64,000 bases of DNA from a virus (lineage: Duplodnaviria > Caudoviricetes): the IMG/VR virus record IMGVR_UViG_3300022677_000027, positions 32,001 through 96,000 of that record. The stretch is one strand, 5' to 3'. Numbering within the stretch: position 1 is the stretch's first letter; every line of letters starts with the position of its first letter. Under the pieces are notes generated by a model. The model worked only from the letters and a program-made list of their open reading frames with translations. It made no database searches and was not told the DNA's origin. The position numbers and the translations under genes were made by a program. Below are positions 31,848-63,180 of this stretch, piece after piece.

Positions 31848-32674
31848 TAACTCCCACCCTCCAAGTTGTTTTGGAAAACGTCATATTCAACATCCTGAGT
31901 ATCTACTTCGCCATGTTCATCACCCACAGCAAGACCAATCCCTTCGGCTTCCTTAACGCCAGCATGGTCAAACAATGGCTTTCTAGCAACAAACCTAGGA
32001 ATATGGATAGCACCATATGTAAGTCGGCCTGGTATGGTTTCCAGATAAGCACTTATCAAATTGGAGCCTATCCTATACCAGCGATTTACAAACTCCGGTA
32101 TATCAGATTGATTAGTAGGCGTGTATACGCTAGACCAAATCAAAAAGGCAGCAATGTAAGCAGTACCAGTGTTGACCTTTTCAGGTATGGACTGAGTATA
32201 TGGAGTATAATCACTGCCAATCAATTCCTGAACTATGCTATTGGCAATTTCCTCAGCATCTGATATAAAGGCTTCTCCATCTTCATTGCTAATATTAGAT
32301 TCAGTTTCAAAAGAAAAATAATCACTAGCTGCAAAAGTACCGACCCAATGCGATGACTTAATGGTAATGATGCCAGAACTAGATATAAAGGTAGAACCAA
32401 CAACACCACTTCCATCAACCGTCAGTTCATCCTCTCCTCTATATAAAGTAAATGCTGTAGAAGAAGTAAACTGCACTTTCCATCTTTCATAACCAACATA
32501 ATTGTCAGCTATGTCTACACCTAATAACATGCCAGTACCCGTGTTATCTCTAAATTTCTTTGGCAAAGTATGCGATTCAGAGAATTTTATTTTCTGTTGC
32601 ACAGACGGGTCAGTACTGACACTGCGCATAACACGCTTCACTTTATCTAGCGATGTGTAGTCATATCTTGACAT
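31847..32674 (-). CDS. Head-tail adaptor (Mu gp36-like) with an inserted beta domain
   Basis: YTSLDKVK N-terminus and FISDAEEIANSIV...YTPY...IP...TAYIAAF. Lies after the capsid gene. Confidence 0.6.
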   Translation of the reverse strand: MSRYDYTSLDKVKRVMRSVSTDPSVQQKIKFSESHTLPKKFRDNTGTGMLLGVDIADNYVGYERWKVQFTSSTAFTLYRGEDELTVDGSGVVGSTFISSSGIITIKSSHWVGTFAASDYFSFETESNISNEDGEAFISDAEEIANSIVQELIGSDYTPYTQSIPEKVNTGTAYIAAFLIWSSVYTPTNQSDIPEFVNRWYRIGSNLISAYLETIPGRLTYGAIHIPRFVARKPLFDHAGVKEAEGIGLAVGDEHGEVDTQDVEYDVFQNNLEGGS

Positions 32675-50325: not shown

Positions 50326-50376
50326 CAGATACCTTACCCAGATACCTTACCCAGATACCTTACCCAGATACCTTAC
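50326..50376. repeat. Tandem repeat, 13 bp x 4 (CAGATACCTTACC)
   Basis: Read directly from the sequence; the last copy lacks its final base. Confidence 0.95.
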
Positions 50377-50401: not shown

Positions 50402-50461
50402 AAAAAATCTTAAAAACTTACCTCTGAATCAAAAAAATCTTAAAAACTTACCTCTGAATCA
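50402..50461. repeat. Tandem repeat, 30 bp x 2 (AAAAAATCTTAAAAACTTACCTCTGAATCA)
   Basis: Read directly from the sequence. Confidence 0.95.
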
Positions 50462-50595
50462 AAAGGGGGGCTAAGGTATATATAACAAACAATGTGCCAA
50501 AACAAAGGGGGGTACGGTATGGGGGCACAAACAGCAAGTACGGTATGTTTGTGCATTGCAATTAACCTAAAAACAACAAAGGAGGTGGTGGCAGC

Positions 50596-50673
50596 ATGGC
50601 CTTAATACAGGGTATTGCAACAGCCCTTATTGTTGCAACCGTTTGGTTTGTTTACCTTGCAACCCGCAAATAA
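50596..50673 (+). CDS. 25-aa single-pass membrane peptide (MALIQGIATALIVATVWFVYLATRK)
   Basis: AAAGGAGGTG SD, which keeps one of the few GA dinucleotides in the block. Hydrophobic helix. Confidence 0.65.
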   Translation: MALIQGIATALIVATVWFVYLATRK

Positions 50674-50699
50674 CCCTTAACCAAAAAGGCAGGTGCATT

Positions 50700-51314
50700 A
50701 TGCAAAAAACAAGTAAGGGGGCCGTGGCCCTAAGTATGCGATTACGCGGTAACAACGCCCATGTGCTTAAACACATTAGCCAATACTTTGCCAATGTACC
50801 AAAAGTGCGTGGCCTTAATACATATGCAGGTATGTATAGCCGCACCACCACCAACTTACAAGCCGTATTGCCACAACTTAAAGCCCTGTATAAGGCCACA
50901 GGCAAACCAGTGTACATTGTTGGCACCATAAGCACCGCAAGGGTAAATGGCAAGGCGGTAAAGCTGCCTACCGCAAGGCACGCCTTTAACCGTAGGCCAT
51001 TTGCCCTGGTGCAAAAAGCGCTATTAGCCATTGGCGTTAACGCCATTAACCCTGCTTGCCTAAAGGCATTTGCTAGGGCAATACACGGCAAATACACGCC
51101 TGGCACCAATGGCCCTGCAATGTTTAATGCAGTGGCAAGCAAAAGCGGGGCTAAATTTACAGTTAAGCGCCTACAGCGCACTAACAAGCGTAGCGTAAGG
51201 GGGTGTTGCGCTATTGTTGTTGTTAACCCAATGCGTAGTTTTACAAGCCTGGGTGTACAACAGGAATTAGCACACGCCATAAAGTTTAACCCTGTGCCCA
51301 TTTACAGGGTATAA
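50700..51314 (+). CDS. 204-aa basic protein with no Asp and a single Glu
   Basis: AAGGCAGGTG SD before ATG 50700. C-terminal IVVVNP...QELAHAI. Confidence 0.75.
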   Translation: MQKTSKGAVALSMRLRGNNAHVLKHISQYFANVPKVRGLNTYAGMYSRTTTNLQAVLPQLKALYKATGKPVYIVGTISTARVNGKAVKLPTARHAFNRRPFALVQKALLAIGVNAINPACLKAFARAIHGKYTPGTNGPAMFNAVASKSGAKFTVKRLQRTNKRSVRGCCAIVVVNPMRSFTSLGVQQELAHAIKFNPVPIYRV

Positions 51315-51374
51315 CAGGGGGCAACCCTGTGTGCGGTTAACCCTAACCGCCCCAATGGGGCAAGGAGGTGCGGC

Positions 51375-51965
51375 ATGCAAACACGAAGCGCACTATTCGC
51401 CAACCAGCTAGCAGTGCTTAGTCCGGCATATCGCCGGTTTACGGAACACTGCCTGCAATGTGCCCCGGAATACGTGTTTACCAACTGTCCTAGTAGCAGC
51501 AGTGGCAAATATCACCCAGTTGACGAACTGGGTCCCGATGGCACAGTGAAACACACACGCAAAGTCTTTGCCGTTGCCAATGCACTGGTGACAGCTATGG
51601 GCTTGCAGCACTACAGAGATGTAATCCTCACTGCCGCATTGGTGCATGATCTGTGCAAACAGGGCATCACTCGTATGGGTCGTACGGTAAGTAATCATCC
51701 TGCGCTGGCCGCGTACCTCGTTAACTTTGTTGCTGGCCATTACAGTGGCCTCATTCCTACCCGTTGCGCACGCCTTATTGCCCATTGTGTAGGGTATCAC
51801 TATGGAGCATGGGGAACAGGCAACTATGCCATTGACCATCTGGCAGACGTGGCCCCTGCTAACAAGCTTGCTCACCTTCGGGCATCTGACCTCAGCGCTC
51901 CTGCTCTTGTCGTGTTTGCAGCCGACTACATCGCTTCTCGCAGGTACGTTAACATTCTAACCTAG
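51375..51965 (+). CDS. HD-domain phosphohydrolase
   Basis: PSSSSGKYHP, KHT, AALVHDLCKQG, NHP, HYGAW and AADYIASR. Confidence 0.9.
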   Translation: MQTRSALFANQLAVLSPAYRRFTEHCLQCAPEYVFTNCPSSSSGKYHPVDELGPDGTVKHTRKVFAVANALVTAMGLQHYRDVILTAALVHDLCKQGITRMGRTVSNHPALAAYLVNFVAGHYSGLIPTRCARLIAHCVGYHYGAWGTGNYAIDHLADVAPANKLAHLRASDLSAPALVVFAADYIASRRYVNILT

Positions 51966-52026
51966 CTGCCCTTGGTTGTTTCATATATAGGCGTTAACCC
52001 ATAACACCAGGAAGGAGGTGGTGAGC

Positions 52027-52269
52027 ATGGACTGGACGTGGCTGATAACCGCAGCCACAACTGTGGGGGTCATTTTGAATGCACGCCAGCGTATAGAGTG
52101 TTTCTATATATGGCTAGTGACCAATGCAGCTTGGTTTGTGGTTGACATGAAGGCTGGCCTCTATGGTCAGGCTGCGATGTTTGCTCTGTACTTCTTCATT
52201 ACCATTTATGCCATAGTCACGTGGAAGCGCAAAGCTAAGGAAGCGGCCAATGGTCAACTTGCCTCATAA
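52027..52269 (+). CDS. PnuC-like small membrane protein
   Basis: Three TM helices: GVILNA...CFYIWLVTN...GLYGQA...W. Confidence 0.7.
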   Translation: MDWTWLITAATTVGVILNARQRIECFYIWLVTNAAWFVVDMKAGLYGQAAMFALYFFITIYAIVTWKRKAKEAANGQLAS

Positions 52270-62308: not shown

Positions 62309-62755
62309 ATGAGTGAGAGACTTAAGGATGTTCTGAAGGAAAATGACCTTGTTGACCTGTTTGTCAACAAGATGAGAATGTTCTCTGTGTCTTCCTCCAG
62401 TGGGACGCATGACTCTGTTGACCCAACCCATCTTGAGGAGTGGAAGTGTGAAGTGTGGCTCGAATATGGATATTCCACTGCAGAGTCAGAATTCCTTGAG
62501 GAGGAGGGAGGAGGCGAGTTTCCTGAGTCTGAGACTGTGACTGTCCACATGCTCGACTGCACATGGGGAGTGGAATTTGAGTTGGAGACGTCTGTGGGGA
62601 TCGAGAAGGGATTTTTCGGACGAGAGATGCGTGGAGAAGGAGAATGGCATCGAGTGACTCCGAGATTCTTTGAGATCATGGCTGACCTGCTGCTCAATGG
62701 AGACGCGGAACCTGCTGAGCAAGATGATCGAGAGAACCCGTGTGCTGAGATGTGA
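62309..62755 (+). CDS. Highly acidic hypothetical protein
   Basis: AAAGGAG SD. Glu/Asp-rich. Confidence 0.75.
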   Translation: MSERLKDVLKENDLVDLFVNKMRMFSVSSSSGTHDSVDPTHLEEWKCEVWLEYGYSTAESEFLEEEGGGEFPESETVTVHMLDCTWGVEFELETSVGIEKGFFGREMRGEGEWHRVTPRFFEIMADLLLNGDAEPAEQDDRENPCAEM

Positions 62756-62788
62756 GATTGTGTGCCAGAGAGGAAGGAGGTGAGAAAT

Positions 62789-62887
62789 GTGAAGCTGACA
62801 AAACTTGCCCTGGAATTTGCAGTGGCTCTCGGTGTCTGCATGATCCTGTTTGTTGCATTCGCAAAGGCGATCATGGCTGTCTGGTGA
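62789..62887 (+). CDS. 32-aa membrane peptide
   Basis: AAGGAGGTGA SD, GTG start. MKLTKLALEFAVALGVCMILFVAFAKAIMAVW. Confidence 0.6.
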   Translation: MKLTKLALEFAVALGVCMILFVAFAKAIMAVW

Positions 62888-62904
62888 GAAAGGAGGTGGA
62901 CAAA

Positions 62905-63180
62905 ATGGTTAGAAAGAACCTGTGCATCGTGTTCAAATGTAAGGATCCGGGACCAGTGGTCACCGAGCATCTGCGATATGCGGGGCTCGTGAGCGTGGGA
63001 GACCGAGATAGAGGTGTGAGCATGCCTTATGATGCTGCCAAGGCAATGGGACCCCTGAAAGAAGGAGAGATCATCGTCAAGATGAAGTGTCCTCCAGAAC
63101 AAAGAGCCGAAGTCTGGCAGGAACAAAACCTGGAGAGACTGAGAAGCTTTGGCGTGAAGGCCGAGGCATTTATGTACTAA
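62905..63180 (+). CDS. Hypothetical protein
   Basis: AAAGGAGGTG SD before ATG 62905. Confidence 0.7.
   Translation: MVRKNLCIVFKCKDPGPVVTEHLRYAGLVSVGDRDRGVSMPYDAAKAMGPLKEGEIIVKMKCPPEQRAEVWQEQNLERLRSFGVKAEAFMY

Follow-up and report, generated by a model that had tools for sequence, protein, structure and literature searches.

The phage families DUF4406, DUF7768 and DUF1937 belong to the superfamily of N-(deoxy)ribosyltransferase-like proteins, and the N-deoxyribosyltransferases (NDT), DNPH1/Rcl, MilB and the TIR domains are more distant members. The enzymes of the superfamily cleave the bond between a base and (deoxy)ribose by means of one Glu, which is located at the start of the helix following strand beta-4. 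In NDT, DNPH1, MilB and the TIR NADases, the Glu at that place acts as the catalytic nucleophile or base. Examples of the phage representatives are ORF42 of Enc34, annotated as 'nucleoside 2-deoxyribosyltransferase', and 1t1j, which we take to be a DUF1937 structure. Here, we describe a relative of these proteins, P0001, encoded in a stretch of 64,000 nucleotides, further called the window (positions 32,001 to 96,000 of the IMG/VR virus record IMGVR_UViG_3300022677_000027). The record is complete, with terminal repeats, and represents a tailed phage with a genome of 140 kb. P0001 contains a single acidic residue, and its gene lies in a cassette from which the dinucleotides GA and TC have been nearly eliminated. 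Based on the structural model, P0001 is a predicted, very divergent relative within the superfamily and falls outside all existing Pfam families; with its extreme composition, it represents a new branch of an enzyme superfamily that is already known.

The P0001 gene is an uninterrupted frame of 204 codons at 50700-51314(+). The encoded protein lacks Asp and contains one Glu (E189, encoded by GAA at 51264-51266(+)), 17 Lys and 15 Arg; the isoelectric point (pI) is 11.5 and the net charge is about +31. All ten Ser codons are AGY and all eight Phe codons are TTT, and the codons ATC, GTC, CTC, GGA and AGA do not occur in the gene. This recount agrees with the initial annotation, which had reported the lack of Asp, the single Glu, the use of AGY for Ser and TTT for Phe, and the strongly basic character. 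The CAIVVVNP...QELAH motif quoted there is also present (residues 170-177 and 188-192), although the spacer is 10 residues long, not 9. In the reference genes of the same phage, Asp and Glu account for 14.0% of residues, and the probability of finding at most one of them in 204 residues is about 1e-12. Chance is excluded as the reason for the lack of Asp and Glu.

No frame other than the plus frame of P0001 is open in the window as well as in the diverged loci L001 and L002. Comparison with a 76%-identical homologue gives a nonsynonymous substitution rate (dN) of 0.15 and a synonymous one (dS) of 1.15, and the resulting dN/dS of 0.13 means that the gene is under purifying selection. The start at 50700 is consistent with the N-termini of the homologues. 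The one frame open in three diverged loci, the dN/dS ratio and the existence of 14 homologues establish 50700-51314(+) as a real gene. A 224-amino-acid (aa) antisense open reading frame (ORF) at 50627-51301(-) is open in the window only and closed in L001 and L002. Its openness is a by-product of the ban on TGA and TCA, which leaves few stops.

The dinucleotide ban covers the entire cassette (Table 1), which begins at a conserved box some 240 bp ahead of the gene and ends about 80 bp beyond the stop codon. In the phage genome of 140,126 bp, GA or TC occurs every 8 bp on average. The region 50460-51396 is by far the longest stretch of such depletion, and the three longest GA/TC-free gaps of the genome are all located inside it. 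When the gene was resampled with synonymous codons and the amino acid sequence of P0001 was kept fixed, the mean was 24 GA and 25 TC, as compared with 2 GA and 0 TC observed. The lowest GA+TC sum in 20,000 resamplings was 31, compared with the observed 2. Across the codon junctions of the gene, none of about 24 expected GA or TC is found. The ribosome-binding site of the gene (50672-50699) is the GA-free variant AAGGCAGGTG.

The homologues were collected by a word-based search, which gave 3 sequences, and by a profile search run exhaustively over 1.84 billion representatives, which added 11 and no other credible match. The family is therefore very rare, with 15 sequences in about 1.8 billion representatives, and every cluster that was looked up had a single member. 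The 14 homologues of P0001 originate from independent metagenomes, and the identity to P0001 across the family is 33-76%. Seventeen columns are invariant: R16, Y72, G75, I77, S78, G84, R98, F101, N117, P118, A119, F124, L158, N162, S183, G185 and E189. Thirteen of the 15 members have exactly 0 Asp and 1 Glu, the Glu always falling in the E189 column, and E189 itself is conserved in all 15 sequences. Other routes to relatives were negative. The 4-kb region had no match at the DNA level among 50,697 phage records, a search for related loci in viral contigs and metagenome contigs found no relatives, and tblastn of P0001 against phages returned chance matches only. One of the latter, from a Nodularia phage at a similar map position, is spurious, with a normal Asp/Glu content and no purged stretch.

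Cassette DNA was available for nine loci (L001-L006, L014, L015 and L016), and in every one the purged cassette harbours a P0001-family gene. TC on the sense strand is absent from eight of the nine, and L016 has one. The Glu codon is the only GA of the cassette in seven loci (L002, L003, L004, L005, L006, L015 and L016). Two lineages have loosened the GA half of the ban and kept the TC half: L001 has 29 GA and 0 TC and a protein with 9 Glu and 1 Asp, and L014 has 7 GA and 0 TC and a protein with 2 Glu and 1 Asp. Acidic residues thus return wherever GA is allowed, so the composition is a by-product of a nucleic-acid constraint rather than a need of the protein. The nucleotide-level ban limits the GAN codons of Asp and Glu to irreplaceable sites, and the Glu surviving it in every lineage must therefore be indispensable.

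The ban acts at the nucleotide level, as the codon junctions and the non-coding flanks are purged too. Depletion is confined to GA and TC; CC, GG, AG and CT are not depleted. The purged stretch ends no more than about 105 bp beyond the stop codon in all loci (about 15 bp in L016, where the stretch is 1.7 kb long). Such a constraint also affects the signals of translation: in the strict loci the Shine-Dalgarno site is recast as AAAGGGGGT, whereas the GA-tolerant L001 has the canonical AAAGGAGGTG, and a GA-free variant of the ribosome-binding site is found at the equivalent sites in L003, L005, L014, L015 and L016. At the protein level, the family mean of Lys+Arg is about 12%, compared with a phage norm of 11.3%, and that of Asn+Gln is about 15%, compared with 8.1%. 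Since the former is near the norm and the latter is raised, the acids were mainly replaced by the amides Asn and Gln, and the high pI is a passive effect.

Two further ORFs of L016, encoding 90 aa (32-304) and 245 aa (351-1088), lie inside its purged stretch, and both products have 0 Asp and 0 Glu; the 245-aa product has no Pfam match. Another observation concerns the ends of the contigs. The independent metagenome contigs of L002, L004, L005 and L006, and those carrying the homologues P0007 and P0016, start shortly before the gene, at a distance of 19-128 bp that is exactly 128 bp in three cases, and the L014 contig ends 127 bp past the gene. These ends may be due to breaks of the assembly in the flanking repeats, or mark a boundary, either physical or in coverage.

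The AlphaFold2 model, calculated on the 15-sequence alignment, is confident, with a predicted local distance difference test score (pLDDT) of 88 and a predicted template modelling score (pTM) of 0.86. The N-terminal part is helical, and at about residue 65 an alpha/beta domain with a parallel sheet begins. The domain has the Rossmann/flavodoxin-like fold which is common to the NDT and 1t1j. In the VIA-align comparison with 48,161 chains, 1t1j is placed first (Z 9.4, root-mean-square deviation 3.1, 114 residues aligned). It is followed by the NDT entries 6evs, 7o62, 1f8x, 1s2d, 6qai and 8rh3, together with 7m5h and MilB (4ohr), at Z 6.2-7.4, and the TIR domains of SARM1, ThsB and SpbK appear at Z 5.8-6.4. 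The shape and feature searches of the ESM Atlas have viral DUF1937, DUF4406 and DUF7768 clusters on top (template modelling scores for DUF1937/DUF4406 of 0.56/0.68), and the BFVD list is headed by phage N-deoxyribosyltransferases with a probability of 0.97-1.0.

The sequence evidence is provided by the comparison of families. A 7-sequence alignment of the annotated NDT of Hafnia phage Enc34 and its relatives with PF24963/PF14359 served as the comparison family. The hhalign result against the single Enc34 sequence was too weak, and the P0001 family aligned with the Enc34 DUF7768 family at E 1.6e-4 over 115 columns, from strand 1 to the C-terminus. In this alignment PVYIVG of strand 1 pairs with LLYIAGP, and S183, G185, E189 and A193 pair, at identical spacing, with the invariant S, G, E and A of the Enc34 family. 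The motif around Glu189 is S-x-G-x3-E-x3-A. P0001 and the DUF4406/DUF7768/DUF1937 group have in common the fold class, the strand-1 Y-I-x-G and the pattern S-x-G-x3-E-x3-A...P-x-Y with the same spacing, and both are encoded by small accessory genes located in early regions of phage genomes, with predicted functions. P0001 differs from the group in an additional N-terminal segment of helices, about 65 residues long, in its scores below every Pfam model, in a Cys in place of the Asp of RCDG, in having Glu as its only acid, in its TC/GA-free cassette and in its great rarity. Counting back from the aligned C-termini, the residues which we take to be the catalytic Glu of 1f8x, 1s2d and 4ohr are within one residue of E189. 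The invariant G75-x-I77-S78 after strand 1 resembles what we assume to be the phosphate-binding Ser/Arg loop of Rcl (DNPH1), a dNMP N-hydrolase specific for 5'-monophosphates; this resemblance is a lead only. The pairing of E189 with the invariant Glu of the Enc34 family indicates that it is probably the catalytic residue.

We consider it likely, with a probability of about 0.6, that P0001 is the product of a real early gene and a relative of this superfamily, that Glu189 is catalytic, that the other acids were lost through the nucleotide ban, and that the protein has a role in the nucleotide pool. P0001 is alike in structure to DNPH1/Rcl, MilB/BlsM and the class I/II NDTs (Z 6.2-7.4), without significant sequence similarity, and judging from the model it would most likely work like these N-glycosidases or transferases, although their auxiliary Asp residues cannot exist in it. 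In such a mechanism P0001 would be an early nucleotide N-glycosidase or transferase, presumably acting on a free nucleotide, and its likeliest role would be to clear or remodel the (deoxy)nucleotide pool jointly with the adjoining HD phosphohydrolase.

Several results weigh against this interpretation. There is no significant Pfam, PHROG or PDB sequence match, and Foldseek against the PDB gave nothing clear. The structural Z values of 5.8-7.4, i.e., all but the top one of 9.4, are in the range where the tool warns of a mere common arrangement, and the hhalign probability is only 51%. The Asp of RCDG, invariant in the DUF7768 relatives, is a Cys in the P0001 family, which implies that the active site is altered and that the protein could act by binding and not as an enzyme. 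Where the purged stretch starts, a scan with the sigma-70 consensus did not detect a promoter. At the level of Pfam, the best matches come from one member only, TIR_2 (E 0.006, 17.5 bits with a cut-off of 28) and Nuc_deoxyrib_tr (PF05014; E 0.09, 13.3 bits with a cut-off of 28.8). The curated cut-offs of PF05014, PF14359 (DUF4406), PF24963 (DUF7768) and PF09152 (DUF1937) are reached by none of the sequences, and both profile and single-sequence searches of the PDB sequences gave no match.

As a nucleotide-cleaving enzyme, P0001 could possibly serve in anti-defence or host takeover. The main rival explanation, which we consider unlikely though well ahead of the others, describes it as an enzyme or sponge of TIR/NDT fold which destroys or sequesters an immune signal derived from nicotinamide adenine dinucleotide (NAD) or from nucleotides, e.g., the ADP-ribose (ADPR) isomers of the Thoeris type, or which rebuilds or redirects NAD, with a neighbouring PnuC-like protein handling a molecule of the nicotinamide riboside type. 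The TIR NAD+ hydrolases SARM1, ThsB and SpbK, found among the structural matches, have a related fold and a single catalytic Glu in the place equivalent to E189. The weak TIR_2 match, the recurrence of the NMN-transporter-like mini-gene nearby, and the position of the gene as the first in a specially protected early cassette, as expected of a counter-defence gene, point in the same direction. However, TIR matches rank below the NDT-type ones in every search, and NDT, DUF1937 and DUF4406 outrank TIR in all four structure and feature searches. The TIR_2 match remains below the Pfam cut-off, and the domains which co-occur with the nearest family (HD and dNMP kinase) point to deoxynucleotide metabolism. 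No defence-related family was matched in the databases searched, PADLOC not being among them.

The protein could also act on polymeric DNA or RNA, exchanging or removing bases at GA/TC steps as a glycosylase, and in this way write or erase a mark at this dinucleotide, with its own cassette kept free of targets. NDT-type chemistry is a base exchange through a glycosyl-enzyme intermediate, the family gene is always inside the purged cassette, and the net charge of about +31 would suit such a substrate. The genome contains no DpdA/TGT, QueC, FolE, Dam or N6/N4 methyltransferase families which could otherwise mark GA. On the other hand, the charge is a passive result of the loss of acids, with Lys+Arg near normal in the family, no superfamily member is known to act on polymers, and there is no evident reason why the gene of the writer should be target-free while the rest of the genome is not. 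We therefore regard this explanation as improbable. The same low expectation applies to its base-exchange version, in which an NDT-fold enzyme would write or remove a mark at GA/TC and the cassette would be the one part of the virion DNA left unmarked, readable by the host polymerase at the first moment of infection; if true, it would tie the dinucleotide ban and its constant gene into one mechanism. It is far less probable still that the acid-free, polycationic composition was itself selected, as in a protein coating or condensing nucleic acids, with the GA/TC depletion as its shadow. The pI of 10.2-11.5 across the three family members computed is in line with this idea, but TC, which is unrelated to Asp and Glu, is banned more strictly than GA, the ban reaches codon junctions, synonymous sites, Shine-Dalgarno sites and non-coding flanks, and the GA-tolerant lineages regain acidic residues. 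The least probable explanation comes from the initial annotation, which had seen a resemblance to the zinc metalloproteases of the ImmA/IrrE type (M78, HExxH), with Gln for the first His. The likeness to Peptidase_M78 consists of the five residues QELAH compared with HExxH, placed after a hydrophobic strand, in the sequence of P0001 alone. Among the 15 homologues, the first position of the motif (the Gln188 column) is Gln, Met or Leu, and the last one (the His192 column) is His, Ala, Tyr, Phe, Trp or Met. Since the metal ligands are not conserved, the zincin interpretation is refuted. No match to Peptidase_M78 (PF06114) or another peptidase was found for P0001 at E <=1 or for any of the 15 members at E <=10. 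The structure prediction which the annotation had proposed gives a Rossmann-like fold of the N-(deoxy)ribosyltransferase/TIR type and not a zincin; NDT, DUF1937 and TIR lead the match lists, and the absence of zincins from these lists would not be decisive alone. Two other proposals of the annotation have held. A DNA constraint shaped the protein, as shown by the purged junctions, flanks and synonymous sites and by the acids regained together with GA. The lone Glu was kept as essential, being invariant in 15 of 15 sequences and the sole GA of the cassette in 7 of 9 loci, and the alignment of the homologues confirms both its conservation and the family-wide avoidance of Asp and Glu (13 of 15).

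Regarding the cause of the ban, its target is the dinucleotide and not a longer site, and the GA sites of the two relaxed loci (L001 and L014) are not set in any additional sequence context, e.g., GANA (complementary to TNTC). As sense TC is banned in all nine loci, with the one exception in L016, and sense GA is relaxed in two, the constraint is at least partly strand-specific. An example of a reader with a specificity of the same two-letter scale is CmdT, which ADP-ribosylates the A in GA of single-stranded RNA (PMC11618068). An attack of the CmdT type predicts a strict ban on GA in the message; here it is UC/TC that is universally banned, and GA is relaxed in 2 of 9 loci. The DpdA of phage iggy marks the G in GA (PMC10484667). 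Such a mark also fits the two-letter scale and would suit an effect on the template strand, but the needed genes are absent here. Some mark or reader behind the ban is the most economical idea.

Several specific candidates were rejected or are not favoured. Evasion of Rho, which uses YC sites, is disfavoured, as CC is not depleted (observed/expected 1.0-1.7), and a codon-level cause based on tRNA is discarded because the ban holds out of frame and in non-coding DNA. Deazaguanine marking at GA would require TGT/DpdA, QueC or FolE, none of which is found in the genome, and adenine methylation has no Dam or N6/N4 methyltransferase family to depend on. A Z-genome phage is likewise disfavoured, as the genome has no PurZ and only a 12.7-bit match at chance level, and the HD protein matches no PDB sequence. 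In the literature searched there is no description of such a ban and nothing relevant on dinucleotide-free early genes or on DUF4406/DUF1937 in phages.

The P0001 family can be considered a natural experiment, in which a conserved and presumably active enzyme family was cut to one acidic residue by a constraint on DNA or RNA. The ban removed two of the twenty amino acids and spared the residue which the chemistry would need, so that evolution in effect would have marked the catalytic residue. The family also illustrates how extensively Asn and Gln can be substituted for Asp and Glu in a nucleotide enzyme with a Rossmann-like fold. The TC/GA-free cassette of this phage lineage thereby gains a named occupant, a predicted enzyme cleaving nucleotide bonds which is located beside HD and PnuC-like genes, and a cassette gene amenable to biochemistry would be of help in explaining the ban.

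Table 1. Positions of the cassette, its elements and other genes of the phage (window coordinates unless marked as genome coordinates).
Feature	Position	Strand	Remarks
Tandem repeat, 13 bp x 3.9 (CAGATACCTTACC)	50326-50376	+	In the 0.5-kb non-coding region upstream of the P0001 gene
Tandem repeat, 30 bp x 2.1	50402-50464	+	In the upstream non-coding region
GA/TC-purged cassette	50460-51396	.	937 bp, 0 TC, 4 GA
Conserved GGGGGGCT + TATA-rich box	50465-50486	+	Start of the purged stretch, directly after the last repeat
GA no. 1 of the cassette	50582		Shine-Dalgarno site of the 26-aa mini-ORF
26-aa hydrophobic mini-ORF	50597-50677	+	Strong Shine-Dalgarno site; read from the sequence
GA no. 2 of the cassette	50740		CGA Arg codon
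GA no. 3 of the cassette	51264		Glu189 codon
GA no. 4 of the cassette	51365		Shine-Dalgarno site of the HD gene
HD-domain phosphohydrolase (phrog_5889)	51375-51965	+	Next gene after P0001; also the next gene in L001
83-aa PnuC-like mini-protein (PF04973)	52018-52269	+	Downstream of the HD gene
Full SHMT, 391-aa thymidylate-synthase-family, radical SAM and glycosyltransferase-like proteins	genome 112154-113413, 131649-132824, 138050-139222, 136393-137637	-	L009, L010, L011

The minus strand of the window carries the portal, terminase, major head and tail genes, and a plus-strand block of small genes, with an exonuclease first, extends from 42 kb on. The same order of the portal, a large 631-aa gene and the exonuclease occurs in L014, where the P0001-family gene is found a few kb downstream. 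The P0001 gene is the first sizeable gene after the repeat-bearing non-coding region of the rightward-transcribed part, and the region and its product are presumed to be early in infection. The last copy of the 30-bp repeat contains the final GA (50456) and TC (50459) ahead of the purged stretch, and a comparable pair of repeats precedes the cassette in L014. The GGGGGGCT and TATA-rich box, which looks like a promoter in the sequence, also stands where the purged stretch begins in L014 and L016. The RNA fold of the 3' flank is no better than that of shuffled sequences (z -1.4).

The Shine-Dalgarno site and the first 21 nucleotides of the HD gene are still within the purged stretch, and its protein has no PDB sequence match. 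In about half of the members of some Atlas clusters, DUF4406/DUF7768 and HD occur together, and in other clusters a dNMP-kinase domain accompanies DUF4406 in about 90% of members. Such an association has been described in a 2025 preprint: in aquatic phages with substituted bases, NDT is reported to co-occur with DatZ, a dATPase of the HD type, and depletion of a canonical nucleoside is proposed (10.1101/2025.10.22.683976). The PnuC-like protein is encoded within 0.1-2 kb downstream of the P0001-family gene in four loci: the window, L001 (2715-2936) and the contigs of P0007 and P0012. With a length of 71-83 aa, it covers only positions 113-175, the last third, of the 175-position NMN_transporter model, and it may be a one-repeat mini-transporter working as an oligomer. 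Elsewhere in the genome, the SHMT, thymidylate-synthase-like, radical SAM and glycosyltransferase-like proteins form a set which could make a modified pyrimidine. Together with the thymidylate-synthase-like, SHMT and radical SAM genes, the cassette offers a testable link of the dinucleotide ban to nucleotide or base metabolism.

Two minor features of the genome were observed in addition. The 1527-aa DNA polymerase (phrog_405; genome 125187-129770(-), L010 9187-13770) has matches to HNH endonucleases at residues about 237-437, ahead of the polymerase part, and this region could be an inserted domain of the homing type. The second feature is another block of constrained composition at window 62471-62910 (genome 94471-94910), where 439 bp without TA form the longest TA-free gap of the genome.

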